From Allocoleopsis franciscana PCC 7113 (GTDB lineage Bacteria > Cyanobacteriota > Cyanobacteriia > Cyanobacteriales > Coleofasciculaceae), in the NCBI RefSeq assembly GCF_000317515.1, contig NC_019738.1, positions 1,937,623 to 2,001,622 of the forward strand: 64,000 nucleotides of DNA, written 5' to 3'. The position numbers and the translations under genes were made by a program. Below are positions 3,995 to 53,237 of this stretch, piece after piece (the first letter of the stretch is position 1; each line of letters begins with the position of its first letter). The notes below the pieces were generated by a model, which saw nothing but the letters and a program-made list of their open reading frames with translations, searched no databases and was not told the DNA's origin.

Positions 3995-5149
3995 TTACCT
4001 CAACGAACCGATACACCGGGGATCGCGTAACGTAGCTTTCTCCAGTTCTCGTGGAAACCACATTGCTGTACGCTTACACACCTCCACCAGCATCAGCATG
4101 ACTGGAACTTCAATTAACACACCCACAACAGTAGCCAGTGCCGCACCCGAATTTAAACCAAACAACATAACTGATGTGGCGATCGCAACTTCAAAATGAT
4201 TACTCGCTCCAATTAGGGCGGCTGGTGCTGCATCTTCATAGGCAAGATTCAATTTCAAGGCCGCAACATAACCGATTAAGAAAATGAAATTCGTTTGGAT
4301 AAACAGGGGTACTGCAATCAACAAAATGTGCAGGGGGTTGTTGACAATCAGTTCCCCTTTAAAGGCAAATAGCAGTACCAGAGTCATCAAAAGGGCTGTA
4401 ATTGCGATCGGACTGAGATATTTGAGAAACTCTCTTTCAAACCACTCTTTGCCCTTATATTTGAGAATCCAGTAACGGCTGTACATCCCTGCGATTAAGG
4501 GCAAACCCACATAAATCAGCACCGATAGCACAATTGTCTGCCAAGGTACGGTTAAATCATTCGCTGCTAGCAACCATCTTCCCAATGGTGCATACAGAAA
4601 CAGCATCGTTAGGGAGTTCACTGCCACCATGATTAAGGTGTGCCCCTGATTGCTATAGGAAAGATAGCCCCACATCAGCACCATCGCCGTACAAGGTGCA
4701 ATTCCTAATAAAATTGTCCCGGCAATGTATGAATTGGCGAGTGCCACTTCACTACCACGAATCAACTCTGTACCCGTAATTAGAGGGCGAAATAACCAAC
4801 TCAGGAAGAATTGAGAAAATGCCACCATTGTGAACGGTTTAATCAACCAGTTCACTACTAGGGTAAGGATGACAGGTTTGGGTGCTCTGAGTGCATTTGT
4901 GGCTTGGGTAAAGTCAATCTTCACCATGATTGGATACATCATGAAGAACAGGCAGATGGCGATCGGAATGGACACTTGATAAATGCTCATCGCATCTAAG
5001 GCGATCGCAATATTTGGAAATAATCGACCCAATGCGATGCCCACGAAGATGCAGAGAAACACCCAAACGGTTAAGTATTTTTCAAAAAAGCTGAGGCTAC
5101 TCCCTGCTTGAGGAGGTAGTGCACGACCGGAAGGATTCTTGGTACTCAT
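3995..5149 (-). CDS. acr3: Arsenite efflux permease, ACR3 family
   Basis: [24 protein letters not shown] is the Acr3 N-terminal signature. Polytopic membrane protein of 384 aa, placed in an ars operon context. Confidence 0.85.
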
Positions 5150-20413: not shown

Positions 20414-20549
20414 TTATCCAGTGAAACAGTATTGTGAGCGATCGCTTGGTTATATTGGTTCGTGACAGTGCAAATACACAAGTCGTTGTGCGTGAATCTC
20501 TGAAAGACGGCTGAACGCTTCTTCTCTCGGTTTGGTTGCGAGAGTTTAG

Positions 20550-20680
20550 ATCCCCCCCAGCCCCCCCACCCCCCTAATCCCCCCTTGGTAAGGGGGGACA
20601 TTAGAAACGAGGGGGGAGAAAACTCTTAAAGTCCCCCTTTTTAAGCCGGAGCCGAAGGTGAGGAGATTTAGGGGGATCTA
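20550..20680. repeat. Cluster of poly-C/poly-G palindromic hairpin repeats (C6-TTGGTAA-G6 core at 20579-20597) just downstream of tRNA-Ser
   Basis: Direct reading. Related copies lie at 21021-21039, 21643-21661 (inverted loop), 22119-22137 and 48331-48349. Confidence 0.75.
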
Positions 20681-20866
20681 ATCGTCTACCTCATCTGGCA
20701 TTACGTCAAAAACAATTTCATAAGGAACGCTGGGTATCATTTGCTTGAGGATTCGCAGATGCCCCTCCGCATCAACTCGGCGGCGAAAGCGCCCGACGAT
20801 GAGGGTACGCATATCGGGGAAGGGGCGGATGATGCACCAGGGATTGAGGCGTTGTAAGTAGGTCAT
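20678..20866 (-). CDS. Hypothetical small protein (62 aa), overlaps the upstream ORF by 4 nt (ATGA)
   Basis: ORF only. The translationally coupled pair architecture is the sole support. Confidence 0.3.
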   Translation of the reverse strand: MTYLQRLNPWCIIRPFPDMRTLIVGRFRRRVDAEGHLRILKQMIPSVPYEIVFDVMPDEVDD

Positions 20867-21183
20867 GACGATGTCCTAATTGGGTTTGCGGGTTGCTTTT
20901 TTAGGGCGCTTTGAATGATGGTTTCAAGGGTTTGGCGTCTGATGTCGTTGTCTTGCGGGTGAAGTACCCAGGCGCTGATTGGGGCGGGTTGATAAGTCAG
21001 CGTGTAGAACCCCCCTGTTTCCCCCCTTGTTAAGGGGGGACCAAGGGTGATGATGATTTTCCAGACGGGTTGTTTGGGTTGTTTACGAAGTCGGTAGCCG
21101 CGTTGATGCAGTGCTGCTTTTATGGCAGCAATATCTGTGGCGACTCGGAGTGCTTCCGTCGCTTTTGATTTTTTCATTGGTAA
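20863..21183 (-). CDS. Hypothetical protein (probable start MKKSKATEAL); contains a copy of the C6/G6 palindromic repeat in-frame
   Basis: ORF only. No recognisable domain. The PPLTRGETGG segment is encoded by the repeat at 21021-21039. Confidence 0.3.
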   Translation of the reverse strand, partial: LPMKKSKATEALRVATDIAAIKAALHQRGYRLRKQPKQPVWKIIITLGPPLTRGETGGFYTLTYQPAPISAWVLHPQDNDIRRQTLETIIQSALKKQPANPIRTSS

Positions 21184-21265
21184 TCTATTAGTAGACACGA
21201 CAGCGATTGCCCAGCAAGCGCTTGGCGCTCTAGGCAATTGCTTTTTTTGTTGTGGTTCAAAAAAG

Positions 21266-21320
21266 ATGTTCTGAAGACAGAACATTTCTATCTTACCTCA
21301 ATGTTCTGAAGATAGAACAT
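21266..21320. promoter_or_regulatory. Twin 20-bp palindromic operator-like sites (ATGTTCTGAAGACAGAACAT at 21266-21285; ATGTTCTGAAGATAGAACAT at 21301-21320) in a divergent promoter region
   Basis: Perfect 8-bp arms AGAACAT/ATGTTCT. The two copies are 15 bp apart and sit 39-93 bp upstream of the XRE-HTH gene start. Confidence 0.6.
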
Positions 21321-21358
21321 TTATTCGGTTATAAGCCTCTGACAAAGTTTCACAAGGC

Positions 21359-21598
21359 ATGGGAAGAGCAGGCAAAGCCCTTAAGCAAGTATTGGAAAAC
21401 TACGACATTACTCAGAATCGATTAGCTGTGGAGATGGGGATTAGTCGCTCTAGCGTTCACCGTTGGGTTTATGAAATTGGCGATCCTGTGGCTGATGCAG
21501 TGATTGATATTCGAGATGCGCTTCACAAGATTAATTCAGAGGCGGCTGAGGAGTTTATCAGGCTTTACCTTGGTGTTGTAGGTGAGGAGAAGGAGTAG
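21359..21598 (+). CDS. XRE/Cro-like helix-turn-helix transcriptional regulator
   Basis: ITQNRLAVEMGISRSSVHRWV is an HTH_3-like motif. 79 aa. Confidence 0.65.
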   Translation: MGRAGKALKQVLENYDITQNRLAVEMGISRSSVHRWVYEIGDPVADAVIDIRDALHKINSEAAEEFIRLYLGVVGEEKE

Positions 21599-21722
21599 GG
21601 ATAGGGGAAGAAAGTGCGATCGCATTTCTCTTCTCTCTTGCTCCCCCCTTACCAAGGGGGGCTGGGGGGGTAAGAGGAGAAACACTTATAACGACTGACA
21701 TCTATAAAACCCAACTATAGCT

Positions 21723-22088
21723 ATGACCAAACTTTATAACAGAGCATCCGAAAAAGCGAAACGACAACAGCTTCGGCAGAATATGACAAAAGCTGAATTT
21801 ATGATTTGGCAAAAACTCAAAGGTAAGCAGATTGAAGGCTGTAAGTTTCGCAGCCAATATGGTGTCGGTCAGTTCGTTATTGATTTTTATTGCCCTGAAC
21901 TTAAACTAGCGATAGAAATTGATGGAGACAGCCATTTTCAAGATGGCGCACAAGAATATGATCGGGAAAGACAGGCTTTTATTGAATCTGTTGGGATTAG
22001 GTTTTTAAGGTTTACGAATAATGAGGTGTACGATAATTTGGAAGGGGTTTTGGAGAGGATTACTCAGGAAATTTGGGAATTATGGTGA
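21723..22088 (+). CDS. DUF559 endonuclease-domain protein (Vsr/restriction-endonuclease-like fold)
   Basis: FRSQYGVGQFVIDFYCPELKLAIEIDGDSHF...DRERQAFIESVGIRFLRFTNNEV matches DUF559. Confidence 0.7.
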   Translation: MTKLYNRASEKAKRQQLRQNMTKAEFMIWQKLKGKQIEGCKFRSQYGVGQFVIDFYCPELKLAIEIDGDSHFQDGAQEYDRERQAFIESVGIRFLRFTNNEVYDNLEGVLERITQEIWELW

Positions 22089-22234
22089 GGTGATGAGTTA
22101 CGGATCTTACCCCCCCACCCCCCCTTGTTAAGGGGGGAGTAATATCAATTTACTCGCCGACTGAAAACAGATACTTTTTCTGTTCCCCCCTTGATAAGCC
22201 GGAGCTTTAGTGAGGAGTTTAGGTGTTAGCTCTA

Positions 22235-22918
22235 TTACTGGCTAAGTAATTCAATTAAGTCGTTCTTCCTCTTCTTGCTGTAGCCAGCTATCCCACGCTT
22301 TTTAGCCATATCTCTCAGCTCTCCAGCAGTTAGGGTGTTTAAGCTAGTAGACTCTTTGATAACTTCAGGCATGGGTTGAGGGGTTAAGTAGAAGACTTCC
22401 TTTAAAGCATTTAGCTTCTTACCTTTGGTAATACCACACTTGAGTGTTGTAATTGGGTCTAGTGTTTTCCAGTACTGACGAGGAGCTTCATCAATGCGAT
22501 CGGTAGCAATCAAAAGCTTAACTCCCTTAAGTTCAGCACCAGGTTTTTCAATTAAATATTGGAGTGCAGCTTTAATGTCATCTCTCGTGGCTGTAGAAAG
22601 GTTGATTTTTGGTGTTACTTCGCCTGATAGAACTTTAGTCAGTTCTACAGTTTCGTTACTAGAATCAGCAATAATGCACCAGACTTTCTCTAAACCCGCT
22701 TCTTCAGCAACAGCATAGATAAATGAGTTGCCAATGACTTCATATTGGTCTTCGCCAATTTCTTTGACAATTACAGGAACCCAATTACGACCGCCTAACT
22801 TGTTGAGAGTTTTTGCTGTAGCGGTAATCAAAAATTCAGGAGCATCTGTCCCTTCACCAGGTTGAATTTCATCCATGTACAGATGCATTAAGTTACCAAT
22901 ATCACTTAAGTTGCTCAT
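22235..22918 (-). CDS. ParB-like N-terminal-domain protein with C-terminal Rho_N/SAP-like motif
   Basis: NWVPVIVKEIGEDQYEVIGNSFIYAVAEEAGL resembles the ParB/Srx fold but lacks the canonical GERRxRA arginines. The C-terminus LTAGELRDMAKKRGIAGYSKKRKNDLIELL is Rho_N-like. Its start overlaps the parA stop (ATGA). Confidence 0.55.
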   Translation of the reverse strand: MSNLSDIGNLMHLYMDEIQPGEGTDAPEFLITATAKTLNKLGGRNWVPVIVKEIGEDQYEVIGNSFIYAVAEEAGLEKVWCIIADSSNETVELTKVLSGEVTPKINLSTATRDDIKAALQYLIEKPGAELKGVKLLIATDRIDEAPRQYWKTLDPITTLKCGITKGKKLNALKEVFYLTPQPMPEVIKESTSLNTLTAGELRDMAKKRGIAGYSKKRKNDLIELLSQ

Positions 22919-23771
22919 TGCAGAAAATACTCCTTCGCTAACTCTAGATAATACTGACGAGCTGTTTTGTCTTTGTAAGCAGCAGGCATACGAGAAAAAG
23001 CCGCACTAGCTATATGAGCATAACTAGGTAGTTCAAAGATATGACGATCTTTTTTAGCTGGAGTGTAGCGAGGATAGAAATAGGGAAGCATGTCAAACTT
23101 TTTTTGTTTATCTTTCTTAGCCTCTTCAATGAGGTTATCTATCGCATGATAAGCAGTAATTTTTTGGGGTTCTGGAATCTTCTCGCCATTGAAGAAAATT
23201 GGTAGTGCAATAGGTCCACCATCTTTTCTTACTTGTTGAACTTCAGGGATAAATCGTTTGATAGCTATGGCTGCATTCTCTAGGGAAAAGATGTTGTTGT
23301 GCTTAGTTGGAATTAGCACAACATCTGAGGCATATATAGCACTTGCACTCAAGAATCGCCAGTTAGGAGGTGAATCAATCAAAATGTAATCATATTCAGA
23401 CTTTAAACTATCTAATATTTGACGAAGCCTGAATATTTTAAATCTTTGGCGTAACTGGTCTTCACTCAGACTAGCTAACAATTCATCAGCAGGAATAATA
23501 TCAAACTGAAATGATTGACCATTTCTTGCATTCTTTGTGACGAATGGCTGTATTACATCACCAGGTTTGACACTGTTTTTTTTATCTTCCAAGTAAGAAG
23601 AGAAGGTTTCCTTACCTTGTTTTATAGATAATGAATTAGTAAGGTCTTGCTGGTTAGGGTCGAAGTCAACAATGAGAGCTTTTTTCCCTTTAATGTGAGA
23701 ACAGCAGCTAAATTAACAGTAGTCGTCGTTTTGCCTACCCCGCCTTTATTGTTGTATATTGCTACTGTCAA
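22915..23771 (-). pseudogene. parA: ParA/MinD-family partition ATPase, reading frame broken by a 1-nt deficit in an A6 tract at about 23690-23700
   Basis: The Walker A box KGGVGKTT lies in the upstream ORF (23622-23936). The remainder (ALIVDFDPNQ-like continuation, YDYILIDSPPN) lies in ORF 22915-23592, which is in the +1 frame. One extra A in GGGAAAAAAGCT would fuse them. The TTG start near 23771 is inferred. Confidence 0.65.
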
Positions 23772-24052
23772 TGCTCTTGGCGTATTTTCGATTTTCTGTT
23801 TTATAGCTGTTACAATCTCAATGAGATTATCTGGCGTAATATCAAGACAGGATGTTGCTGGGTAAATAACCCTCCCATGCTTTCTGAATAATTGTATGTG
23901 GACTGAATTAGTAATAATACCCCGGGAGCATCCCAATTTTGCAAGAAGGCAAGAGAACGGGAAGTTTATTCGCGATTTTTACTCGCGAATAAAGGCCGAC
24001 TAGGCGGATGTTGCCCTAACTGCGACAATTTAATTAGTTAGGGAGCCTCTTT

Positions 24053-24268
24053 ATGACAATGACACCAGAAGACAAAAAACTTTTAGCCGACCATATCAAG
24101 GCGATAGCTAAAATTCTCTATAAAAATACTCCACAAGAGAAAATTGAGACGTTAGAGGGTATTGAAACAGCGGTGCGCGACCAAGTGCTAGAACATGTCA
24201 GCCCCCAAATAACCTTTTTTTTATCGGAGAAAAGACGGGAACAGAATCGGGACGCATCCGAACGATAA
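24053..24268 (+). CDS. IS orfA (71 aa, small N-terminal transposase component), copy A
   Basis: Identical to 44562-44777. Ends just after the U UUU UUA slippery site. Confidence 0.6.
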   Translation: MTMTPEDKKLLADHIKAIAKILYKNTPQEKIETLEGIETAVRDQVLEHVSPQITFFLSEKRREQNRDASER

Positions 24269-24289
24269 GAAGTTGTGTGGGTCGGATAA

Positions 24290-25132
24290 AAATCACTCAA
24301 AAACAAGCGTCACGTTTAGGAATTGAGCCGTATCGACGGTTAAGTCCTCTTCTGGAAAAAATGCTGTTTATTACTTGCAGCAAATGAATCATTTCAAGAT
24401 GCAGAGAATGACCTGAAAGTCTTGACCGGGGTAGAAGTAGGTCACAGCACTCATCATCGCCAAGCCCAGAAAGTAGAGCTATCGCCACCTAATATTAAAC
24501 AAAAACTGACAGAAGTTTGTCTCGATGGTGGGAAAGTGCGTTTACGCTCACAGGAAAAAGGTAAACCCGCCTACTGGAAGGAGTATAAAACCGGACGACT
24601 ACAAGGAATATATTACGGAGCCTTCTTTCAAGATAATTTTTCTCTAATTAATTGGGTGAACAGCCAAAACCTGGCTCGAACCATTTATTGCTTGGGTGAT
24701 GGACACGATGGGGTGTGGAACCTATTTGCACAAATAGCCGACGACCAGACCCGACAAGAAATTCTTGACTGGTATCATTTGAAAGAGAACCTCTATAAAA
24801 TTCAGGCATCGAAAAAGTTTTTAGAACAAATCGAAGCAGATTTGTGGCAAGGAGTGGTCGAAGAAGCGATTAGTAAACTCCGGAAAACTAACTATGTCGG
24901 GGCTACTAACTTTATAAGTTATCTACGTAAACATAGGCATCGCTTAGTCAATTATATGTACTTTCAAGCCGAACAATTAAGTTCGATTGCTTCGGGAGCT
25001 GTAGAGTCTGCGGTCAAACAGATAGACAAGCGGCTACAAATAGTCGGCGCTCAATGGAAGTCCCAAAATTTACCGCAAATGCTGCAACTGCGGTGCGCTT
25101 ATCTGAATCGACAGCTTGCTCCAAGCGCTTAA
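24290..25132 (+). pseudogene. IS orfB (catalytic transposase part), copy A; frame disturbed by an extra A (A6 vs A5) at about 24355-24360 relative to copy B
   Basis: The ORF track shows only the 236-aa tail (24422-25132). The comparison is with the intact 284-aa orfB of copy B. Confidence 0.55.
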
Positions 25133-25211
25133 AAAACCCAAAAACAGTATGAAAAGAAGCACGCTGCTTTTTTTCGCGAGTTACAATCGCGAATAATTAG
25201 GATTTATCTTT

Positions 25212-25622
25212 ATGCCTCGAAAGACTTCCAAGGATATTGAGCGAGATAAACTCGCTCGATTTGAGCGTATTAAAAAGGCGATAGCAGCGTTAGAAAAACA
25301 ACAAAGACAAATATTAAAACAGGGTGAGCTGGCTCCATCCGGGGCTTGGGTAGCGCGTTATCAAGTTCGGCAAAATAATAAGAAATATTGGTACTACAAA
25401 TTACAAGTGCCGACTCCATACTTCCCATGCGCGACCTCCGAAGAGTTGAGTAAATACAAGCATCTGGGGAAAGCTGGTACTACTGACCATATAGATGCTG
25501 TCATGTCTGTTTTTAGGCGTTCTGTTATCGATGAGATACAGAAGCTCATCCGTTCCCTAGATGATTGCTTGCTGGATATTACTTCTGGAGCCGAGCAGGA
25601 GGAAGAAAAACCGCAGGATTGA
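25212..25622 (+). CDS. IS-borne passenger ORF3 (136 aa), unknown function, copy A
   Basis: Identical to 45720-46130. No recognisable domain; charged and Lys-rich. Confidence 0.45.
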   Translation: MPRKTSKDIERDKLARFERIKKAIAALEKQQRQILKQGELAPSGAWVARYQVRQNNKKYWYYKLQVPTPYFPCATSEELSKYKHLGKAGTTDHIDAVMSVFRRSVIDEIQKLIRSLDDCLLDITSGAEQEEEKPQD

Positions 25623-25697
25623 ATCTCCCGAAGTATTCGCGATTATTACTCGCGAATAATGGCTGTCCCTTTATTTTTGCACAATTGGGATGCTCCC

Positions 25698-26049
25698 TAA
25701 TACCCCACTGTACCGTTTTACAATTACTATCTAACAAGTAGCCCTTAAGTTGCTTAAACGTAGATTGATATTGGGTAGATCCATCGCTCAGGTTAATGTG
25801 CCTACCCTTTAATTCAAGCAGAATATAAGGATTAGATTGAGTAGCTAGGAAAATATCTCCATTGGTATTATGACGAAGAGCATAATCAACCTTATCTGGA
25901 CGGATTCCAGTTGTATAGTGGGGAACACGTTCCATTAGTCCAAAACCCAGTGCTTGCAAAAATTCTGGTACAAAAATTCGATCGACTATGGATTCTTGTG
26001 CATCGTCAGGAAGGTTTAGCAGCGCTTGCTTAAGTGCTTGGTCATTCAT
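25698..26049 (-). pseudogene. HsdR_N-like PD-(D/E)xK nuclease-fold small protein, 3' end replaced by IS copy A
   Basis: GIRPDKVDYALRHNTNGDIFLATQSNPYILLELKG has a D...ELK motif, as in the type I restriction enzyme R N-terminal domain. The last ~40 codons of ORF 25579-26049 read into the IS terminal repeat. Confidence 0.5.
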
Positions 26050-26230
26050 GATTTAATGAAACTGATTAACGGATAAGCCCTGCGAAGGCTGATTTTTCCA
26101 CACTGAATAAAAGAGCATCGCTCTTTTTTGAGCCTAATTCAAGAAGCGCTGCCTCGCATTAGTATATTTACGGAATTTTGGTAAGCGAGACGCCTGGATT
26201 TGAGCTGATTCTGCTTTTTCAGAAGTCAAG

Positions 26231-27787
26231 TCACTTGTTGCTTAGACTTCCCAATAATTCAGATGTTTGTTGAGGGGTAACCAAGGTATTGGCACAGAGG
26301 ATGCCGGATGCTGCAACCGCAGGAACTCCAATCCCCGGCATGGTGCTATCACCGACACGATATAAACCAGCAATAGGGGTTTGGCAACTGGGAAACATGC
26401 CTTTACCAGCCGCGATCGCAGGGCCATAGGTTCCTTGATAACGGCGCAAGTAGTGGGCGTGAGTTAGGGGGGTGCCAATCAGTTCTAAGACGATGCGTTG
26501 TCGGATATCGGGAATAATGCGTTCCAAGGCACGAAATAAGGGTTGCGATCGCGCTTTCTTCCTTTCCTCATACCCCTCATCCCGTTGCCATCCTTCGTAA
26601 GGTTCTAAAGTATAGGCATGAACCGTATGATGCCCCTCTGGGGCGAGATTGGCATCCCACACGGAGGGGATGGAAATCATACAGGTATTTCCCGCTTCTG
26701 TAATATCCTTGTTGCGATCGTGAACAACGACATGATGTCCCGTTAGCCCCTCTAATCCCTCTGCCCGGATACCCAGGTGTAAGTGCATGAAACTATCAAC
26801 CGCAGGTGTCTCTAAAGCTAACTGTTGGTAAGACTGGGGCAAATCGTCCGGACGCAGTAGGGGCAAACGACCGTTTACTCCTACAAAAGTATCCCAAATC
26901 GTGGCATTGGAGATGACCACAGGGGCTTTGAGGATTTCTCCTTGGCGTAACCGTACTCCAACGACTTTATCGGCTTCTACCAGAATTTGCTCGACGTGAG
27001 CATTCAGTCGCAACTCGCCTCCCCAGCGTGTTAAGCCGCGTACCAAAGCGTCAACAATTGCCCCACTGCCCCCAACGGGATACTCCACGCCTGCGCGGGT
27101 GCGTTCGCCTAACATAAATGCTACTTCAGGTGCGATCGTGCCGTGTGCCTTTAGTCCAGATAGGAGAAAGCACTCTAAATCAATCAATCGCCGCACCCAA
27201 GGGTCACAAACCTCTTTGTCCATCACATCCCCGACGGAACCCTGGATGATACCCAGTTGGGGTAGCATTTTGAACAGGGAGGGCAAATAGCGTCCTAATA
27301 AGACAGGAATGAGCTGCCAATCGGCTCTCAGGGCAAGGGTTGGGATATCCCGTAAGCAGTCATAGAGAAGCAACAAACGTTTTTCAAATCCTTGGAGTTC
27401 CCTAGCTCCTTGGGGTGTAATCTGAGCAACAGCCTCTCGATAGCGAGTAGCATTGCTGTAAACTGGAAACGTTTCTTCCGGAAAATGGTAATATCCCAAG
27501 GGGTCGTAGGAAACGACTTGCAACGATTCTCCGAGAACGTCCAATACTTGCCGCAAAGGGTTGAGGCTGGGACGTTGGTCACTTAGCCCGCAGTAAAACG
27601 AAGGACCCGAATCAAACTCAAACCCCCGCCGTTTAAAACTATGAGCGGCACCTCCAGCGATCGCATGGCTCTCGCACACCAGCACTCGCTTACCGTACCG
27701 CGCCAGTAGAGAGGCACATGTTAAGCCGCCAATCCCACTACCAATAACAATTACATCAAGGCTCAATGCTGCTTCTCCGATTTCCAT
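26231..27787 (-). CDS. FAD-dependent oxidoreductase of the phytoene-desaturase/carotenoid-isomerase (CrtI/CrtH-like) superfamily
   Basis: N-terminal dinucleotide-binding fold VIVIGSGIGGLTCASLLARYGKRVLVCE. 518 aa. C-terminal GDSTMPGIGVPAVAASG. Confidence 0.65.
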   Translation of the reverse strand: MEIGEAALSLDVIVIGSGIGGLTCASLLARYGKRVLVCESHAIAGGAAHSFKRRGFEFDSGPSFYCGLSDQRPSLNPLRQVLDVLGESLQVVSYDPLGYYHFPEETFPVYSNATRYREAVAQITPQGARELQGFEKRLLLLYDCLRDIPTLALRADWQLIPVLLGRYLPSLFKMLPQLGIIQGSVGDVMDKEVCDPWVRRLIDLECFLLSGLKAHGTIAPEVAFMLGERTRAGVEYPVGGSGAIVDALVRGLTRWGGELRLNAHVEQILVEADKVVGVRLRQGEILKAPVVISNATIWDTFVGVNGRLPLLRPDDLPQSYQQLALETPAVDSFMHLHLGIRAEGLEGLTGHHVVVHDRNKDITEAGNTCMISIPSVWDANLAPEGHHTVHAYTLEPYEGWQRDEGYEERKKARSQPLFRALERIIPDIRQRIVLELIGTPLTHAHYLRRYQGTYGPAIAAGKGMFPSCQTPIAGLYRVGDSTMPGIGVPAVAASGILCANTLVTPQQTSELLGSLSNK

Positions 27788-39241: not shown

Positions 39242-40129
39242 ATGTCTCACTCTACTGACTCAACCCCCCTGGAAAACGCCCTGCCTCCCCTAGCACCTGC
39301 CGTTTACATTATTGGTGCAGGGCCAGGAGACCCTGAATTATTGACCGTTAAGGCACAGAAAATTCTCGCCCAAGCGGATGTGATTGTGCTGGCGGATTCC
39401 CTCGTCCCCCCGCAGATGTTGCAGGGTGTCCGTCCCGATGCGGAATTGGTTCGCACGGGGAATAAAACCCTAGAAGAGATTGTGCCATTGATGATTGAAC
39501 GGGTGCGATCGCACAAATCCGTCGTTCGCTTACATTCCGGTGACCTGAGTCTCTACAGCGCCATCCATGAGCAAATGCAAGCCCTTGCCGAAGCCTCCAT
39601 CCCCTTTGAACTCATTCCAGGGATTAGCGCCTTCCAAGCCGCCGCTGCTAAACTCGGTGTTGAGCTGACAGTGCCGGGACTGGTACAGTCCATTATTCTC
39701 ACTCGCATCAGTGGGCGTGCTTCCGCTGTACCGGAGTCGGAAGAACTGGCATCTTTAGCCGCTCATCAAGCCAGTTTGTGCCTCTACCTCAGCGCCCGTC
39801 ATATCGAAGACGCTCAAGCCAAACTGCTGGAACATTACCCTGCTGATACTCCTGTCGCCGTTTGCTTCCGCATCGGATGGCCGGATGAGAAAATCTGGCT
39901 GGTTCCCCTAGAACAGATGGCGGCACTGACGCAAGCCGAAAATCTTATTCGGACAACCCTTTATCTGATTAGTCCGGCGCTGAGAACGGCAAGGAACGAA
40001 CTAACATCCCAGACAGACTTCAGCCTTAGTACCCCTGAAAGCGTAGACGCTGGGCATGAATTAGCCCGTTCCCGTCTGTACCATCCCGAACACTCCCATT
40101 TGTTTCGACCCTCTCGCCCTGTTGGATAA
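39242..40129 (+). CDS. cobM: Precorrin-4 C11-methyltransferase-like tetrapyrrole methylase
   Basis: VYIIGAGPGDPELLTVKAQKILAQADVIV is the TP_methylase motif. About 250-aa core plus a ~45-aa tail. Confidence 0.6.
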   Translation: MSHSTDSTPLENALPPLAPAVYIIGAGPGDPELLTVKAQKILAQADVIVLADSLVPPQMLQGVRPDAELVRTGNKTLEEIVPLMIERVRSHKSVVRLHSGDLSLYSAIHEQMQALAEASIPFELIPGISAFQAAAAKLGVELTVPGLVQSIILTRISGRASAVPESEELASLAAHQASLCLYLSARHIEDAQAKLLEHYPADTPVAVCFRIGWPDEKIWLVPLEQMAALTQAENLIRTTLYLISPALRTARNELTSQTDFSLSTPESVDAGHELARSRLYHPEHSHLFRPSRPVG

Positions 40130-40156
40130 CCTGAAAACAGGTGCCATTTCAAAATT

Positions 40157-40555
40157 ATGAATTCAACTGTCTGCCCAAAATGTAGAGGACGCTTAGAGCC
40201 AGTCGTCTGGGCTGGAATTGAAGTAGACCGTTGCCTTGGTTGCAAAGGAATTTGGTTTGATTCCCTTGAGGCGGAACAGCTCAAAACAATTCAAGGTTCT
40301 GAAGGCTTGGATATTGGCGACCAAGAAATTGGCAGCCAACTCGATAATATAACGGGCGATATTCAATGCCCTCGTTGCCACACGAAAATGACTCGCCTGG
40401 TGGACATTGACCAGTACTGTATCTGGTATGAAGTATGCCCCAAATGTCAAGGGGTGTGGTTAGATGCCGGTGAATTTACTCAGTTTAAAGATAACTTCAA
40501 GCCTAAAGGCTTTCTCGGACGCATCAGTCAAGTGTTTCGTCCAGGCAGTCATTAG
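40157..40555 (+). CDS. Tandem zinc-ribbon (zf-TFIIB-like) protein
   Basis: Two CPxC...CxxC modules (CPKCRG...CLGC and CPRCH...CPKC). Confidence 0.6.
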   Translation: MNSTVCPKCRGRLEPVVWAGIEVDRCLGCKGIWFDSLEAEQLKTIQGSEGLDIGDQEIGSQLDNITGDIQCPRCHTKMTRLVDIDQYCIWYEVCPKCQGVWLDAGEFTQFKDNFKPKGFLGRISQVFRPGSH

Positions 40556-40714
40556 AGTAACAGGGCGGGCAGGAGGCTCACCCCACAGGCAGATTATTGC
40601 TGTCAATATTGGCATAGGCTGAGCATTTTAGCGATTGGCTAGGAACCGATACCCCTTGTCCCTTGCCTGTTGGTACACTTAATGCGATGTGTGAGCACTT
40701 AGGGAGAATAATCC

Positions 40715-41197
40715 TTGCTAGACGAACAAGCGAAAAAGACAATGCTGCGGAAGATTCCTCACGGTCTTCATATCTGCGGAGTGAAAGAGGGTGAGGAAAT
40801 GAATGGTTTCACGGTGAGCTGGGTGATGCAGTCTTCGTTTGAGCCGCCGTTGGTGGTGAATTGCATTAAAAAAGATAGTGGCTCTCATGAAATGCTGAAA
40901 AACACGGGAGTGTTTACCCTCAGCTTCCTAGAGAGTGGACAAAAGGACATGGCGGCGAAATTTTTCAAGCCGCAGAGGCGAGTTGGCAATAAGTTGGAAG
41001 ATGTAGATTTCTATGAGGGAGCAGAAACGGGCTGTCCCATTATTTCTGATACTCTGGGTTACGTTGAATGTAAGGTGGTAGCCACTGTAGATCAAGGTGA
41101 CCATACCGTGTTTGTCGCTCAAGTGATTGGTGCGGGTGTGCACCGCGAGGGTGAGCCGCTTTTGCTGGAAAGCACTGGCTGGAATTACGGTGGATAG
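40715..41197 (+). CDS. Flavin reductase-like FMN-binding domain protein
   Basis: GLHICGVKEGEEMNGFTVSWVMQSSFEPPLVV matches Flavin_Reduct. Confidence 0.7.
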   Translation: MLDEQAKKTMLRKIPHGLHICGVKEGEEMNGFTVSWVMQSSFEPPLVVNCIKKDSGSHEMLKNTGVFTLSFLESGQKDMAAKFFKPQRRVGNKLEDVDFYEGAETGCPIISDTLGYVECKVVATVDQGDHTVFVAQVIGAGVHREGEPLLLESTGWNYGG

Positions 41198-41258
41198 ATA
41201 GCCGCTAACTGCTCCTTAAAATCTGAAATCGTTTTAACCAAGTGGTGATTACAAGCCT

Positions 41259-41612: not shown

Positions 41613-41675
41613 TTTTTAAATTGATGCGAACGAAAGAATAAGACCGAAACCGAGTAGTTAGTAATATTCGATAAA

Positions 41676-46503: not shown

Positions 46504-49500
46504 GTGACAGTTGCGTACGTCCTGATAGAGTTTGACAAACGATATACTTTGGGAAACGGATGGCAGTCCTTCATCGGGGAGCATTCAATGATTACCCTGC
46601 CTGGAATTACTATCCACAGCAAAATTTATGAGAGCTTAGCTTCTTTGGTGTATCGGGGCATCAGAGAGCAAGATGATTGTGCAGTGATTGCCAAAGTTCT
46701 CAAGCAGGATTATCCCTCTCCTCAGGAATTAACTCGCTATCGGCAGGAGTATGAAATTACTCGTTTTCTCAACATTGAAGGCGTAGTCAAGGCATACAGC
46801 CAGCAAGACTACCAGCGCACGCTGGTTATTCTTTTGGAAGACTTTGGTGGAGAGTCTTTAGAATGCTGGATGCGGCAACAGTTAGACTTCTCTCCCATGC
46901 CGTTGTCGGTTTTTCTGAAAATGGCGATCGCCATTACTGATACTCTAGGCAAAATCCATGCGGCTCATGTCATCCATAAGGACATTAATCCTGGCAACAT
47001 TGTCTTTAATCCGAGGACTGGCGTTGTCAAAATCATTGATTTTGGCATTGCCACTCGCTTCAGTCGCACCAATCCCACCTTCAAAAGTCTCCATCTTCTA
47101 GAAGGAACCCCCGCCTATTTGTCGCCAGAGCAAACCGGACGAATGAACCGGATGCTCGACTATCGCACTGATTTCTACTCGCTGGGTGCAACCTTCTACG
47201 AACTGTTGACGGGACAATTGCCGTTTCCCACCCGTGATCTCCTGGAACTAGTCCACTGTCACATTGCTACACCGCCGATTCCTCCACACGAAGTTAGGGG
47301 TATGGGGGATGGGGTGTGGGGTGTGGGCAGGGATGGTTCATCATCGACCAGGCATACAATTCCTAAAGCAGTTTCCGACATTGTGATGAAACTGATGGCG
47401 AAGAATGCAGAGGATCGCTATCAGAGTGCCTGGGGCATCAAAGCAGATCTAGAATGCTGTGCTCAACAACTGGCAGAAACGGGTCAGATTAACGCCATAT
47501 CGTTGGGACTGCAAGATGTTTCCGAGCAGTTCCGCATTCCTCAAAAACTGTATGGGCGAGAAGCGGAGATTGCAGCATTATGGGTAGCGTTTGACAGAGT
47601 GACGGGGAATCGGGAATCGGAAGTCGAGAATCGGGAAAAACACCCCACACCCTACACCCCACACCCCACACCCTACACCCCACACCCCACACCCCACACC
47701 CTACACCCTACACCCTCATGCAGCGAAATGATGCTGGTCTCTGGTTACGCTGGCGTTGGCAAAACAGCATTGGTACAGGAACTCTCTAAACCGATTACCG
47801 CAAAGCACGGCTATTTTATCTCTGGCAAATTTGACCAATTCCGGCGCAACATTCCCTACAGCGCGATCGTTGATGCTCTGCAAAATTTGGTGCAGCAACT
47901 CTTGGGAGAACCCAATGAACAGGTGGAAGTATGGCGATCGCGTTTACTCACTGCTTTGGGAAGCAACGGACAAATTATCATAGATGTCATTCCCGAAGTT
48001 GAGTTCATTATTGGCAAGCAGCCCCCTGTGCCCGAAGTTGGAGCAACTGAGGCACAGAATCGCTTCAATCTTACGTTTCAAAGGTTTGTGCGGGCGTTTT
48101 GTGCAAAAGAGCATCCCCTAGTCATTTTCTTAGACGATCTACAGTGGATCGATTCTGCGACGTTGAAGTTAATCGAACTCGTCTTACTTGATGAGCAAAT
48201 CCAGTATTTGTTTTTGATCGGAGCCTACCGAAATAACGAACTGACTCCAACGCATCCGGTGGTCTTAACGCTCTTAGAACTGCGAAACCAGGGAGCAGTA
48301 TTTCAGGAAATCATCCTGACCCCCCTCAATCCCCCCTTGGTAAGGGGGGAAGTAAAGGGGGGTGGCAGTGGAACCTGGCTGAGATTGAAGCTCAAGATAT
48401 CACCGATAATGTGGTGGAGTTGCTGCTGCGTCAGTTGCAAAAATTACCGGAAGCAACACAGCAAGTTCTCTCCATCGCTGCTTGTGTTGGGTCTGAGTTT
48501 GATTTAGAAACGTTGGCGATCGTTTGCGAAAAATCACCGAAAGCAATTTTCCAGGATTTATTAGAAGCAATACAATCTGGATTAATTCAACCTTTGTCTG
48601 AATTGGACGAAGACTTGTTGGTTCAAGAGTATAAGTTTCTGCACGATCGCGTTCAGCAAGCGGCTTATGCTTTGATTGATGAATCGCAGAAACAAGTGGT
48701 TCATCTCCAAATCGGTGGCAATTTGCTCGAAAAAACTTCACCAGAGCAACGATCCGATCGGTTGTTTGAAATCATCGATCATCTCAATCAGGGAATTGAG
48801 CTAGTCACTGCTCAACCAGAACGAACTGAAATTGCCAGATTGAATTTAATAGCAGGTCAGAAAGCGAAGGCAGCAACGGCTTATGAAGCCGCGTTTAAGT
48901 ATTTCACTACAGGGATTCAACTTCTCAATCCAGAGAGTTGGCAGAGTGAGTATGACCTTACTTTAGCGCTGTACTCAGAAGCAGCAGAAGCAGCATATCT
49001 TCATGGTTGCTTTGATGAGATGGAACAATTCGTAGAAGTGGTACTCGTTCACGCTAAGACAGTGGTTGACAAAGTGCAGGTTTACGACAGCAGAATTCAA
49101 AGACATTTGTCACAGGGCAACCTGAAAGAAGCACTTAAAATTGGATTGGAAGTGTTAAAGCTTCTGGGAGTGATTTTACCAGAAAATCCAAGTGAGTTAG
49201 ATGTTCGAGGCGGATTGGAGTCAACGGCTGCACTACTCGCTGAACGAGAAATTGAAGACTTGATTAATTTACCAGAGATGACTGCACCAGAACCGCTAGC
49301 AGCAATGTCAATCCTAGCGAGTATTGGAGCGACTGCGTTTATAGTTTCGACAGCACTACAGGTACTTATTGCGTGCAAAATGGTAAATTTATCGCTCGAC
49401 TACGGCAATTCTACCTGGTCACCAATGAGTTATGCTGCCTATGGAGTTGTTCTATGTGGAGTTGTTAAAGACATTGAACTTGGTTATAAATTTGGCAAAT

Positions 49501-52500
49501 TGGCTCTCGGTTCGCTAGAACGATTGAATACCAAAAAAAGGGATGCTAAAGCATTTGTGGTATCGGTTGCCCTAATCATGCACTGGAAAGTGCATCTTAG
49601 GAACACAATACCCATGCTGATTGATGCTTATCAAAACGGAGTGGACACTGGAGACTTTGAATTCGCTGGCTATGCTGCATGTGACGTGTGCTACAACTCG
49701 TTTTTCGTCGGTGAGGAACTCACCCAACTGGAACAGAAAACGGCAACATACAGCAAAGCAGTTGATCGAATCAGACGGGAAAGCCCCTCGACTTGGATTG
49801 CAATAGTGTGGCAGACCATTCTTAATTTGCTAGACAGGTCTGAGAATCCCAGTCGCTTAGTTGGTCGAGTGTGTAATGAAGAGCAGGCATTACCACACGC
49901 CCTTGAAGTTAAAGATGGAACTGCAATTCAAATGCTATATCTGCACAAAGTTATACTGTGTTATCTATTTGAAGAATATCATCAAGCTGTACAGAGTGCT
50001 ATTCTGGCAAGGCAACATTTTGAAGAAGTGACAGCAACAAAGGTTTTACCTGTATTCTGTTTCTATCATTCTCTAGCGTTTTTGAGTCTATCGCTCGATG
50101 CTTCAAACTCTGAAAAAGTAGCTTGGCTAAACTGTGTTAACACCAACCAAGAAAAGATGCAGAAATGGGCAGAACACGCCCCAATGAATTATCTACATAA
50201 ATTTTATCTAGTCGAGGCAGAGAAAGCGCGAGTCTTAGGGCAATTTCTTGAGGCTGAAGAGTTTTATGAACGGGCGATCGCAGGTGCTGCTGAAAATGAG
50301 TATATCCAGGAGGAAGCATTAGCTTATGAATTAGCGGCTAAGCATTATCTAGCGCGAGGTCGAGAGAAAATTGCTCAAACTTATATGAAAGAGGCGCACT
50401 ATTGCTATAGTCGCTGGGGCGCGATCGCTAAAGTTAAAGACTTAGAAAAACGCTATCCACAGTTCTTTTGTCAGTCGTCTAGAGCCGCTTCCGCATCAGT
50501 TCCTATTACTGCTGAAACTATCTCTAATTCCTTCCATACTGCTTTCGATTTAGCAGCAGTGATGAAAGCTTCACAGGCGATTTCTCGTGAAATTGAACTG
50601 AAGCAATTGCTGCGATCGCTGATGCAAATTTTAATTGAGAATGCTGGCGCACAAACCGGATATCTGATTTTAGAAAACTCAGGAGAATGGTCGATTGAAG
50701 CGGCTTGTGAACTCAATGCCGAGGAGAATGCTTGTGCGACTCAGGTGTTACAGTCTACTCCAATTGCCGCTCAATTGCCAGAATCAATCATTCAATATGT
50801 GATTCGGACTCTGAAGCCTGTCACCTTAAATGATGCGACTCGTGAAGATGCTTTTATTAATGAGCCATACATTCAACAGAACCAGCCTCAATCTATTTTC
50901 TGTTTGCCGCTGCTGAATCAAGCCAAGCTGGTCGGTGTATTGTATTTAGAAAATCGGTTAGCCGCTGGAGTATTTACACCAGAGCGATCGCAAGTCTTGC
51001 AGCTATTATCGACTCAAGCCGCAATCGCCATCGAAAATGCCAACCTTTACTCAGAACTGCGGGCTAAGGAAAGCAAGATCACCCAGTTCCTCGAAGCGAT
51101 TCCGGTGGGAATTGGGATCGTGGATGCGACGGGTCGCCTTTACTATACCAACCAATGCGGCAATCAACTCGTGGGCAAAGAGACTGATCCTTCCATCGCA
51201 CCAGAGCAGATCTCAGAGGCTTATCAGCTTTATGTAGCGGGAACGGATCAAGTCTATCCAGCGGAGAGCTTGCCTATTGTGCAGGCATTAAAGGGCGAAC
51301 GCATCAGGACTGAAGATATAGAAATTCGTCGAGATCATGTCTCAATTCTACTTGAGGCACGGGGAACACCAGTTTTTGATCAACAGGGCAATATCATTTA
51401 TGCGATCGCTACCTTTCAGGACATTACGGAGCGCAAACAAGCCGAGAAACTCCTAGCTGACTACAACTGCACTTTAGAGCAACAGGTTGCAGAACGAACT
51501 GCTGCGTTACGACAAAGTGAGGCTAATTACCGCAACCTGCTACAAACCGCGAATTCAGTCATCGTTCGCTATGATCCGCAAGGACGGATTCACTACATCA
51601 ACGATTATGGGGTAAAACTTCTGGGCTATGAAGAACATGAGATTTTAGGGCGAACCTTATTTGAAACCATCCTTCCAGATATCGAACTCTCTGGACGCGA
51701 TATGAAACCCTTTGTCCATGATTTACTTCGTAATCCTCAATCGTACCCGCGAGGTGAGGGTGAAAATTTGTGTCGAGATGGTCGGCGAGTTTGGATGGAG
51801 TGGTCGAATCAAGCCATTTTCAATGACCAGGGAGATGTCGTTGAAATCTTATCGGTGGGCAACGACACCACCCAGCGTAGACAAGCAGAAGAGGCATTAC
51901 AACGCAGTGAAGCCAAGTTCCGAGCTATCTTTGCAAACTCCCAGGTTGGCATCTACCGCACCCGCATCGGTGATGGATTAATTCTTGATGCCAATCAACG
52001 CTTTGCAGAACTGTTTGGCTTTGATTCACCCCAAGAGATGATTGGAATTGAACACACTATAGGCTATTGGGTCAATCCCAGCGATCGCCAACGAGGCATT
52101 GAAGTGATGAAGCGGGATGGGGAAGTGCGAAGCTTTGAAGCACAGTTGCAAAAACGAGATGGGACAGTGTTTTGGGGACTTTTCTCTTCCTATCTGAATG
52201 CAGGCGATGACTACATCGAAGGGGTGCTTGCAGATATTAGCGATCGCAAACAAGCAGAAGCAGCCCTACAAGTCTCAGAGTCAAAGCTACGGACTCTAAT
52301 TGAGGCAATTCCCGATCCATTGTTTGTATTCTCTGCTGAAGGGCGATTCCTTGAAATAATGGTACTGGAACCAAATCTGCTATGGCAACCCTTTGAGGAG
52401 ATGATTGGTAAAACTATGCATCAACTCGGAAGGGAAGAAGCTGATGAGTTTCTAGGTTATATTCAGCAGGTACTGAGAACCCAACAAATCCTCACGGTCG

Positions 52501-53237
52501 AGTATGGTGCGTTTCTAAATGGACGAGAAATGTGGTTTTCGGCTCGCATTGCCCCAATCAGCCACGATCAGGTGATTTGGCTGGTGCGAGATATTACGGC
52601 GCAGAAGCAAGCAGAAGCCACCTCGATTCTGGAAGAGCGTAACCGCATGGCACGCGAAATTCACGACACACTCGCTCAGTCGTTTACGGGCATTCTGGCT
52701 CAGGTGGGAGCGGCGAAACAGGTGCTAACGGATGATTTAGAAGCAACTGGGGCACATCTCGATCTGATCAAAGAATTGGCGCGAACTGGACTGACTGAAG
52801 CGCGGCGATCGGTTGTCGCGCTCCGTCCTCAGCTTTTGGAGGAAGGCAGTTTACAAAGTGCTCTCCATCGTCTCGTCGCTCAGGTTAGAGCTGCCGCAAT
52901 GGATACCACTTTGTACTATGAGATTGAGGGTGCAGTGTATGCTCTACCCAGCGAAGTCGAGAGTAACCTACTGCGGATTGGGCAGGAAGCCTTAACCAAT
53001 GCGATTAGACACGCCCATGCTGACGAAATTCGAGTGGAGCTAGTCTACAAGTATGATCAGTTTTTGTTGCGCGTAAAAGACAATGGACAGGGCTTTGGAG
53101 TGGGCAGTATTCCCTCCTCTGAGGGCTTTGGCTTACTCGGCATGAGCGAGCGGGCAGAGCGCATCGGTGCACAACTCACGATTCGGAGTCAACCCGGACA
53201 CGGAACAGAGATTATTGTCACCATCGATCGGGAGTAA
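46504..53237 (+). CDS. Giant multidomain signalling protein: Ser/Thr protein kinase - AAA/STAND ATPase - TPR-like - GAF - 3xPAS - HisKA_3/HATPase histidine kinase (HstK-like); frame interrupted at 48331-48374
   Basis: Kinase HKDINPGNIVFN...DFGIA...PAYLSPEQ. Walker A GYAGVGKTAL. GAF region around aa 690-850 of the second ORF. PAC ends (ITERKQAE, DISDRKQAEAAL, ITAQKQAEA). H-box EIHDTLAQSFTGI, with a GFGLLGMSERAE ATPase. Two ORFs (46504-48507 and 48411-53237) overlap in different frames across a palindromic repeat insertion. Confidence 0.75.
47296..47335. repeat. Heptanucleotide tandem repeat block (GGGGTGT/GGGGATG type), translated within the kinase domain
   Basis: ggggtatgggggatggggtgtggggtgtgggcagggatgg encodes RGMGDGVWGVGRDG. 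Confidence 0.7.
47605..47715. repeat. Heptanucleotide tandem repeat blocks: (GAATCGG)n then (CCCCACA/CCCTACA)n, about 11 units, in inverted orientation to the 47296 block
   Basis: Encodes NRESEVENREK then HPTPYTPHPTPYTPHPTPHTLHPTP. A 21-nt periodicity keeps the frame. Confidence 0.8.
48331..48374. repeat. Inserted copy of the C6-TTGGTAA-G6 palindromic repeat family inside the giant kinase gene (about 44 bp, not a multiple of 3)
   Basis: Flanking codons read ...IILTPLN | insert | LAEIEAQ... in frames that differ by one nucleotide. Confidence 0.65.

Follow-up and report, generated by a model that had tools for sequence, protein, structure and literature searches.

C6/G6 hairpin repeats in Allocoleopsis franciscana and other bacteria, and their conserved arrangement around a small DUF559 nuclease gene

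A stretch of 64,000 nucleotides from the genome of the cyanobacterium Allocoleopsis franciscana PCC 7113 (NC_019738.1, positions 1,937,623 to 2,001,622; here called the window, with coordinates counted from its first letter) contains five copies of a short palindromic hairpin built from a run of C, a seven-nucleotide centre and a run of G, two of which enclose a gene for a small nuclease of the DUF559 family. These hairpins are multi-copy and polymorphic, they cluster and nest, occur in frame within protein genes, lie at a deletion junction, and stand in a defined orientation around DUF559 genes. The explanation favoured here, to which a probability of about 45% is assigned, is that they are the C6/G6 form, mainly of filamentous cyanobacteria, of a widespread group of G/C-rich dispersed repeats, and that the DUF559 protein is the cognate nuclease which spreads them. 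The broader proposal that small DUF559 nucleases (YcjD family, Vsr-like) act as cognate enzymes of the repeats known as BoxC, potential intrastrand triplex (PIT) elements and triplex motifs throughout bacteria is put forward more tentatively.

The 19-mer CCCCCCTTGKTAAGGGGGG occurs exactly five times in the window, at 20579, 21021, 21643, 22119 and 48331, in agreement with the positions given in an initial annotation made from the letters alone, while none is expected by chance (0 matches in 100 shuffles). The copy at 21643 has the opposite loop orientation (loop TTACCAA), and a generic search of the 64 kb for C5-N9-G5 returned the same five copies and nothing further. The initial annotation had described a 6-bp G:C stem with a 7-nt loop. 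Its C6 and G6 arms stand, but not the size of the loop: computed folding (duplex folding only) yields a stem of 8-9 bp and a loop of 3 nt, because the TT and AA of the supposed loop pair too. The DNA fold of copy 5 has -17.5 kcal/mol (z -3.6). With the hairpin abbreviated as H, the copies and their flanks are:

Copy 1, hairpin 20579-20597: C7-AG-C7-A-C6-TAAT-[H]-N13-G6
Copy 2, 21010..21047 (+): C6-TGTTT-[C6 TTGTTAA G6]-ACCAA-GGG, the third block being weak on the GGG side
Copy 3, hairpin 21643-21661: [H]-CT-G7
Copy 4, hairpin 22119-22137: C7-AC-[H]
Copy 5, 48320..48362 (+): C6-TCAAT-[C6 TTGGTAA G6]-AAGTAAA-G6

All five have an additional homopolymer block a few bases from the hairpin, at a polarity compatible with a triplex. 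Of 133 copies in other genomes, 111 likewise have a third block of this polarity, with 0 and 3 in the wrong-polarity controls. Among these 133 copies, a block of at least five C lies no more than 14 nt upstream (TTGKTAA orientation) in 80 and a block of at least five G downstream in 44, and the spacers frequently co-vary, for example gtag with ctac or tttaatt with aattaaa. As the third block recurs at a fixed polarity, the unit is a three-block element and no bare hairpin, and the C/G runs which had been noticed beside the hairpins belong to it. The plan of the repeat is [C-block]-spacer-[C-block TTNNNAA G-block]-spacer-[G-block].

Copies 3 and 4 are the inverted termini of a unit of about 0.55 kb which holds the DUF559 gene and consists of the following parts, given with the adjacent site:

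21616..21623: HIP1 site (GCGATCGC) marking the unit's left junction
21638..21675 (+): left inverted terminus with copy 3 (21643-21661), CT, and a G7 third block (21664-21670)
21723..22088 (+): gene for a DUF559 (PF04480) Vsr-like PD-(D/E)XK nuclease, 121 aa
22105..22142 (+): right inverted terminus with a C7 third block (22110-22116), AC, and copy 4 (22119-22137)

The two termini (21638-21675 and 22105-22142) form a 38-nt inverted repeat around the gene with 92% complementarity, and the arrangement of the left one, hairpin and then G-block, recurs in loci L095, L336 and L337. At locus L095 of Coleofasciculus an unrelated left flank with GCGATCGC is followed by the DUF559 unit, and at loci L202 and L203 an XRE gene and GCGATCGC are held in common with the window before the sequences diverge, which represents an empty site. 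The left junction of the unit thus falls exactly on the HIP1 site. At locus L337, where the DUF559 protein is 95% identical, homology with the window stops at 22199, the boundary between centre and arm of a half hairpin.

The DUF559 protein matches PF04480 with E=4.3e-31 (107.5 bits, cut-off 20.6), and its nearest solved structure is PDB 3HRL (3.5e-17). In an alignment of 30 sequences including YcjD of E. coli the residues E25, D54, E65, D67, G68, H71, D80, R83, and N99 are invariant; as these are of catalytic type, the window protein fits a putative active Vsr-like nuclease. A DUF559 protein of Caulobacter causes SOS-inducing DNA damage in vivo (PMC12907096), and the Vsr-like fold includes the EDxHD homing endonuclease I-Bth0305I (PMC3239194). 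Similarity of DUF559 to homing endonucleases in PHROGs is at the domain level only. The exact window protein has a single genomic context on record. It is recorded only from Logan read assemblies without an NCBI source, so that the deposited genome may lack an annotation of this open reading frame (ORF). These assemblies start 79 nt upstream of the DUF559 ATG and therefore break at the hairpin, and this break in the assemblies of PCC 7113 hints at multiple copies genome-wide.

Evidence for a link between gene and repeat also comes from other genomes. When metagenomes were scanned with four aligned DUF559 sequences, 80 loci with 47-73% identity were obtained. They stand for 64 distinct genomic contexts, of which 60 were usable, and 56 of these, from many phyla, were positive. 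In nearly all 80 loci the upstream layout is '[cctCCCC TTnnnAA GGGGagg] n3-6 GGGG(a/t)GGT ... ATG' and the downstream layout 'stop ... aCCTCCCC n2-3 [CCCCtcc TTnnnAA ggaGGGG]'. Perfect C-first hairpins reach a density of 5.46 per kb in the 150-nt upstream flank and 4.50 per kb in the downstream flank, compared with 0.18 per kb in the rest of the 80 loci and 0.07 per kb inside the DUF559 gene. A hairpin was found at 150 nt or less from a gene end in 63 of 72 DUF559 homologues but in only 8 of 57 control ORFs (p=6e-18), and at both ends in 39 of the 72 versus one of the 57 (p=6e-12). The third blocks are oriented as well, a G-block after upstream hairpins prevailing by 32 to 12 and a C-block before downstream hairpins by 36 to 11 (p=3e-6), which is the same inverted arrangement as in the window unit. 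The layout of hairpin and G-block, DUF559 gene, C-block and hairpin is thus conserved around this DUF559 subfamily.

The same layout is found in the isolate genomes of Kamptonema (in a C7/G7 form), Rivularia, and Fischerella. In the latter two the flanks of the DUF559 gene have the CCCCTCTCC/GGGGTGAGGT form, which bridges to the E. coli triplex motif TMECO treated below, and the gene with its repeats lies directly downstream of metH in Rivularia PCC 7116 (L334) and Fischerella sp. JS2 (L335); this shared position in two genera suggests vertical inheritance in Nostocales. The 19-mer also adjoins DUF559 homologues in Chloroflexota (L029) and Nitrospirota (L118), which have this layout too and are likewise embedded in related hairpins. 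In the literature searched no link of BoxC, PIT or triplex motifs to DUF559 or ycjD is described, and as far as this search shows the conserved coupling has not been described before.

Repeats with this architecture have been found more than once. BoxC was rediscovered under two later names, first as PIT elements and then as G/C-rich triplex motifs; certain enterobacteria and cyanobacteria have very many of these motifs, for which no function is known (PMC4666352). TMECO has the form CCCTCNCCC-N3-6-GGGNGAGGG-N3-GGGNGAGGG with 23 copies in strain K-12 (Holder et al. 2015, PMC4666352); inverted pairs of TMECO/PIT are frequent, an association exists with local rearrangements and not with known mobile elements, and evidence for triplex formation from circular dichroism and nuclear magnetic resonance is for TMECO only (PMC4666352). 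The three-block structure of the BoxC class is seen in all five window copies, with pure C6-7/G6-7 blocks that depart from the TMECO consensus. On their sequence the window repeats may be regarded as a pure-C/G member of the architectural class of BoxC, PIT and triplex motifs, not as members of the E. coli sequence family.

E. coli itself has a DUF559 gene, ycjD, whose 3' end lies inside a C-first hairpin with the stop codon in the loop. Behind it come a duplicate of part of the gene's 3' end and then, in the ycjD-fabI spacer, a full TMECO. The first report of BoxC was made in the paper on envM (=fabI), to go by its citation as reference 46 of PMC4666352. The duplicate, at about 4330-4385 (-) of the K-12 locus (L205), is a diverged version of the last ~50 nt of ycjD (ETVLENIRQGLNRP versus ETVLENILQELNRR); it sits with the stop-codon hairpin on one side and TMECO on the other, and resembles what an earlier copy or a conversion event would have left behind. 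The ycjD-fabI spacer has a median of 16 matching places per genome in 5,426 E. coli genomes. In 60 spread genomes 9-26 places of the spacer repeat (median 18) were counted in the 37 with ycjD, versus 1-14 (median 4) in the 23 without, a contrast which is consistent with the coupling.

The repeat is not confined to the window. The 19-mer was found at at least 120 loci of many genomes, where ~9 chance matches are expected in the whole 596-Gb collection if a uniform base composition is assumed, which disposes of the idea that the motifs occur only here or are parts of one larger gene. About 70 among the matches listed are from filamentous cyanobacteria (Microcoleus, Coleofasciculus, Nostoc, Scytonema, Lyngbya, Symploca), others listed from Phycisphaerae and other Planctomycetota, Nitrospirota, Thermodesulfovibrionia, Calidithermus/Meiothermus/Trueperaceae, Chloroflexota, Gammaproteobacteria, and others. 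Only 8 viral contigs contained it in a viral-contig scan, so the repeat is not phage-borne. Copies are variable between paralogues and between close relatives, a polymorphism for which the initial annotation had proposed a check. Other genomes often have the repeat in tandem arrays, whose period is 36-60 nt. A CRISPR-like reading of such arrays (L045, L051, L066) was rejected, as they have no spacer-sized unique sequence and their units are the three-block repeat itself. A full-text literature search with the hairpin sequence gave no match.

Copies 1, 3, and 4 are intergenic, and copies 2 and 5 lie within coding sequence. Copy 2, which had been predicted to lie inside an ORF, is indeed located in frame in the first of these features:

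20863..21177 (-): ORF A, conserved hypothetical protein of 104 aa, host of copy 2 at an insertion hot spot
20678-21598: XRE-ORFA-ORFB module, with XRE (79 aa), ORF A (95-145 aa) and ORF B (62-69 aa), related to loci L201-L204 and L337

This is a conserved three-gene module in which ORF B overlaps ORF A by 4 nt, and neither ORF A nor ORF B has a match in Pfam, NCBIfam, PADLOC or PHROGs. ORF A has 315 homologues, and most among the matches listed have 95 aa compared with 104 aa in the window. The difference is copy 2, an in-frame insertion of +27 nt (+9 aa) by which the product reads ..ITLGPPLTRGETGGFYT..; in the alignment the majority of homologues have ..WKVIITPEIFYT.. where the window ORF A has ..WKIIITLGPPLTRGETGGFYT... 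The empty site is seen in the paralogue L201 of the same species as ACCCCC|GAAATC|TTCTAC, the filled site in the window and L203 as ACCC..-TTAGT/TTGGT-[C6 TTAnCAA G6]-AAACA-G6-TTCTAC. The net gain of 27 nt thus adjoins a pre-existing C-run, with 6 nt replaced, and no target-site duplication was found at this one resolved insertion. Alleles of +0, +3, +9, +35, and +50 aa share one codon position in ORF A, which marks it as a hot spot with nested insertions.

Copy 5 interrupts a second gene:

46504..53237 (+): giant kinase gene (Ser/Thr-kinase/AAA/TPR/GAF/PAS/His-kinase), split at copy 5 into ORF 46504-48507 and ORF 48411-53237

In the homologues L089 and L051 about 60 residues, including a GNPFF region, lie between ..TLPSL and WQCDIAQV... 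In the window kinase ..ILTPL runs directly into the repeat, followed by WQWNLAEIE.. in a different frame, and these ~60 residues are gone. The interruption of this gene by a hairpin had been noticed before; on the comparison with the homologues copy 5 marks the junction of a deletion of ~60 aa combined with a frameshift. Read from the sequence, one additional base in any of the C6 or G6 runs would rejoin the kinase into a single frame, so that a sequencing error or homopolymer slippage may explain the frameshift, and the split kinase is probably a pseudogene, or else a gene switched by homopolymer length. At L089 two tandem copies of the repeat are found in frame within the linker of the kinase (NPPQTPLSKGKIPPQSPLTKGG). 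The window kinase also contains heptanucleotide tandem repeats in its coding sequence, GGGGTAT x4.4 (47297-47327), GGGAATC x4.7 (47605-47637), and ACACCCC x10.9 (47640-47715), which encode HPTPYTPHPTPYTP.. in the linker in frame and resemble STRR-type repeats.

Nesting of elements within the hairpins is evident from two further sites, one of them in a composite array:

20546..20681 (+): composite repeat array of 136 nt downstream of tRNA-Ser, its last bases overlapping the ORF B stop codon; in order C7 (20552-58), C7 (20561-67), C6 (20569-74), TAAT, copy 1 (20579-20597), spacer, G6 (20611-16)
20633-20675: second hairpin of the array, C5 (20633-37) and TTTTTAAG, a 20-nt element standing in for the 3' arm, followed by ATTTA and G5 (20671-75)
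20646..20665 (+): 20-nt mini-element CCGGAGCCGAAGGTGAGGAG, replacing the 3' (G) arm of a C5-TTTTTAA-G5 hairpin
22185..22223 (+): half hairpin of C6 and TTGATAAG, its 3' arm replaced by the element CCGGAGCTTTAGTGAGGAG (22199-22217)

The last two features had been taken as the two copies of a direct repeat of ~35 bp. The repeat is real, with a core of ~23 nt, AAGCCGGAGC-N4-5-GTGAGGAG, at 20643-20665 and 22196-22217 where none is expected by chance. The initial annotation had further suggested that it brackets a 1.6-kb module of the XRE, DUF559 and two small minus-strand genes which moved as a unit, and this has to be abandoned. In both copies the shared sequence begins directly after 'C5-6 TTnnTAAG', that is after the 5' arm and centre of a hairpin and in the place of its 3' G arm, an intact form for comparison being CCCCCTTTTTAAGGGGGATTTAGGGGGATC in L049. 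The ~35-bp repeat is therefore no bracket of a module but two independent copies of an arm-replacing 20-nt element. Moreover, XRE-ORFA-ORFB is present without DUF559 in L202 and L203, and the DUF559 unit without XRE-ORFA-ORFB in L095. The 20-nt element has the structure GCCGGAGC-TTTA-GTGAGGAG; it replaces an arm three times in L202, and while copy 4 is intact in the window, its orthologue in L337 has the element instead of the 5' arm. As arms are replaced at several sites, it represents a second-order mini-element nested in the hairpins. A viral-contig scan for it gave matches at chance level and zero in hairpin context.

The array has outer inverted ends of 11 nt, TTAGATCCCCC and GGGGGATCTAA. 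L202 and L203 carry arrays at the orthologous position which are composed differently, which indicates rapid turnover. Between the tRNA-Ser flank and the array L202 (2840-3170) and L203 have ~340-560 nt more than the window (at ~20527/20528), with an ORF of 114 aa; this length difference is either a deletion adjoining the repeats in the window or an insertion in the relatives. At 20552-20584 four successive C6-7 runs lie on one strand, with G-runs on the opposite one, so that an i-motif or a G-quadruplex is possible besides a hairpin or triplex.

From these observations the following mechanism is proposed. The DUF559 protein would be the cognate nuclease of its flanking repeats and would nick or cut the hairpin or triplex, once extruded, close to where homopolymer arm and TTNNNAA centre meet, a site chosen because every arm replacement and every homology breakpoint observed falls at the arm/centre junction. 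Repair that copies from another repeat, by gene conversion or template switching, could then spread, nest and reshuffle the repeats, and the same break repair could cause the local deletions. Such a pair would resemble REPIN/RAYT with a PD-(D/E)XK nuclease replacing the Y1 transposase (PMC3116915).

Several points weigh against this proposal. The association of DUF559 and repeat is spatial only, and we know of no small DUF559 protein which acts on hairpins or triplexes. The metagenomic queries were drawn from hairpin-bearing loci, so that the set of 80 samples one DUF559 subfamily only. A DUF559 gene is present in only 3 of 120 hairpin-centred loci, a frequency which is expected of a low-copy enzyme and is not diagnostic. 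The position next to metH fits a vertically inherited housekeeping repair gene as well as a domesticated element. Outside cyanobacteria the G-block by the ATG (GGGGAGGT) resembles a Shine-Dalgarno sequence, so that gene-proximal copies could be expression signals. In E. coli ycjD follows phylogroup, being present in A/B1/C, whereas B2 and other groups have eefRABCD in its stead (PMC12817139), and 12 places are still counted in O157:H7 genomes that lack ycjD; as ycjD presence tracks phylogroup, the copy-number contrast can only be called consistent with a coupling.

The chief alternative, held with clearly less than even confidence, is that the repeats are of the same class but DUF559 is not their enzyme, the gene being a selfish or repair-gene cassette. 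DUF559 might then prefer to land in repeats in a homing-like manner, using them as target and homology arms, and complete composite units standing as direct repeats around the gene in L144, L160, and L131 are what integration into an array would leave; the duplicated 3' fragment downstream of ycjD also speaks for the cassette view. A gene homing into abundant repeats should however be multi-copy, and the exact DUF559 protein has been found in one context. Alternatively the flanking copies might be DUF559 expression signals, sequestering the Shine-Dalgarno sequence upstream and serving as anti-Shine-Dalgarno sequence or stabiliser downstream, as the G-block GGGGAGGT 5-20 nt before the ATG and ACCTCCCC after the stop codon would suggest. 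The G7 block is 52 nt from the ATG in the window and ~17 nt in Kamptonema, though, the flanks are true inverted repeats, and solitary copies, including those in frame within genes, cannot be expression signals of DUF559. The repeats themselves would have to spread otherwise, by slippage or template switching at hairpins, by RNA intermediates as proposed for cyanobacterial repeats of the SDR type, or by an unidentified transposase. That the 20-nt arm-replacing element moves in repeats without a linked gene speaks for such a route, and the Caulobacter DUF559 protein VsrA acts as a mismatch-repair-type nuclease (PMC12907096), which suits a repair-gene cassette.

Three further alternatives remain. 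It seems unlikely that the hairpins are REP/REPIN elements moved by a RAYT (Y1 HUH transposase) encoded elsewhere in the genome, with the proximity of DUF559 incidental. They do share with REPs the form of short G/C-rich imperfect palindromes, dispersed and in inverted pairs, RAYT subclasses occur in cyanobacteria (PMC6006769), and GTAG is found in the spacer of a few copies (L022, L058, L067, L088). Yet the conserved 5' tag GT[AG]G or CGTC is missing from the window hairpins, which are preceded by TAAT, GTTT, CAC, and CAAT, and the corresponding position is variable in the 133 copies elsewhere; the gene between the inverted copies encodes DUF559/PF04480 and no Y1 transposase, so that the geometry agrees and the enzyme family does not, and the association holds in 56 of the 60 contexts. 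The initial annotation had spoken of MITE-like or short dispersed repeats, of which the second description is apt. MITEs (miniature transposable elements with inverted repeats) in the strict sense, deletion derivatives of an insertion sequence (IS) mobilised in trans by its transposase, are a very improbable explanation. The 136-nt composite with its 11-nt inverted ends would have a suitable shape, and an ISKra4-family IS, the only IS of the window, is present in two copies; the mapped IS ends (GAGCATCCCAATT...) and terminal inverted repeats do not match the hairpins, and a MITE of the local IS was rejected for this reason. Furthermore the insertion in ORF A made no target duplication and replaced 6 nt, the basic unit of 19-45 nt is far under MITE size, and the interior of the composite is wholly different in L202 and L203 while its ends persist, one of them being partly the ORF B stop region. 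Equally hard to sustain is the view that the hairpins are immobile host signals selected in place, such as terminators (as the initial annotation had considered), mRNA stabilisers or protein-binding sites. The stems are stable and three of the five copies lie between genes, but none of the five was called terminator-like and no T tract follows any stem, the 3' tails being ACATTAG, ACCAAGG, CTGGGGG, AGTAATA, and AAGTAAA. Rfam searches gave only tRNA and sub-threshold noise for 19-24 kb (E<=1), with no family matching the hairpins, and no repeat family for 8 DUF559 loci (E<=0.1). The other two copies are in coding sequence, copies are present or absent between close relatives, and PIT elements acted neither as promoters nor as terminators in E. 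coli (PMC4666352).

HIP1 has 54 sites in the window, on average one per 1.2 kb, which marks the DNA as cyanobacterial, with none in 21624-26411 and 39513-46221; these two stretches are probably recently acquired DNA, and the left junction of the DUF559 unit is the exact starting point of the first. The two IS copies, at 23923-25695 and 44432-46203, are 1,773 and 1,772 bp long and 99.94% identical, with ends GAGCATCCCAATT(T/G)TGCAA. A single A in an A5/A6 run sets the two apart and truncates the transposase ORF of copy 1 (24422-25132) compared with copy 2 (44786-45640). IS copy 1 abuts the 5' end of a gene for a ParA-like ATPase at 22915-23936 (-), which appears split, with Walker-A in ORF 23622-23936 and AAA_31 in ORF 22915-23592; its neighbour at 22235-22918 is ParB_N/Rho_N-like, and the region is low in G+C (0.39).

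Repeats of the BoxC, PIT and triplex-motif class have been known since 1992 as abundant in enterobacteria and cyanobacteria and linked to rearrangements, with neither a function nor an origin nor a mobilising protein identified, and DUF559 is among the commonest nuclease domains of 'unknown function', with no role assigned to ycjD of E. coli. The coupling of DUF559 and repeat from E. coli to cyanobacteria, Chloroflexota, and Nitrospirae merges these two questions of an orphan repeat and an orphan nuclease. Should the enzyme prove to be cognate, REPIN/RAYT would be joined by a second partnership of repeat and enzyme, with a PD-(D/E)XK nuclease recognising an extruded hairpin or intrastrand triplex, and it would explain both the spread of the repeats and the genomic instability around them. 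For annotation it matters that the repeats add in-frame peptides such as PPL(V/T)RGE, create deletion and frameshift pseudogenes, and break short-read assemblies.

Compared with known systems, the closest likeness in architecture is to BoxC, PIT, and TMECO, in which a C-block and its complementary G-block are separated by a loop and a second G-block follows after a short loop, or the mirror form. Dispersed copies (tens per genome there), inverted pairs, local deletions or rearrangements, and abundance in cyanobacteria are further points in common. TMECO differs in its CCCTCNCCC/GGGNGAGGG blocks, the window repeats having pure C6-7/G6-7 blocks and a TTGKTAA centre, and it is reported always intergenic whereas two of the five window copies are in coding sequence; the DUF559 link, including ycjD beside the first BoxC, is not mentioned in the BoxC/PIT/TMECO literature searched. 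The repeats SDR1-8 of Nostoc and relatives, which Elhai and colleagues are said to have described in 2008, are reportedly ~20-27 nt long, nested in repeats or in each other, with one family tied to HIP1, and confined to related cyanobacteria. In behaviour, as distinct from sequence, the 20-nt GCCGGAGC-TTTA-GTGAGGAG element nests likewise and the DUF559 unit abuts HIP1; the C6/G6 hairpin, by contrast, is found far beyond cyanobacteria. Rickettsia palindromic elements, which Ogata and colleagues are said to have described in 2000, reportedly are Rickettsia-specific, measure 100-150 bp and stand in frame in protein genes, where they are tolerated as extra peptide. The in-frame insertions in ORF A (+9 aa) and in the kinase linker of L089 are comparable, although the elements here are 27-45 nt, based on G/C homopolymers and mostly intergenic. 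I-Bth0305I and other Vsr-type enzymes share the catalytic fold and the conserved acidic and histidine residues with the DUF559 protein; I-Bth0305I is a selfish mobile nuclease gene with a pseudopalindromic target (PMC3239194), while the window DUF559 is free-standing, with no intron or intein and no NUMOD or HTH domain, and consists of a nuclease domain only in its 121 aa. REPIN-RAYT is distinguished by its HUH Y1 transposase, in place of which a Vsr-like PD-(D/E)XK nuclease is found here, and by the GTAG/CGTC tag, which the repeats here lack. In contrast to REPIN-RAYT, no transposition intermediate is known to us for the DUF559-repeat pair. In organisation the two systems are nevertheless alike, with a low-copy enzyme gene between inverted palindromic repeats, the same repeat dispersed in the genome, a conserved locus of the gene in several lineages, and fewer repeats in E. 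coli lineages without the gene (Bertels & Rainey 2011, PMC3116915).

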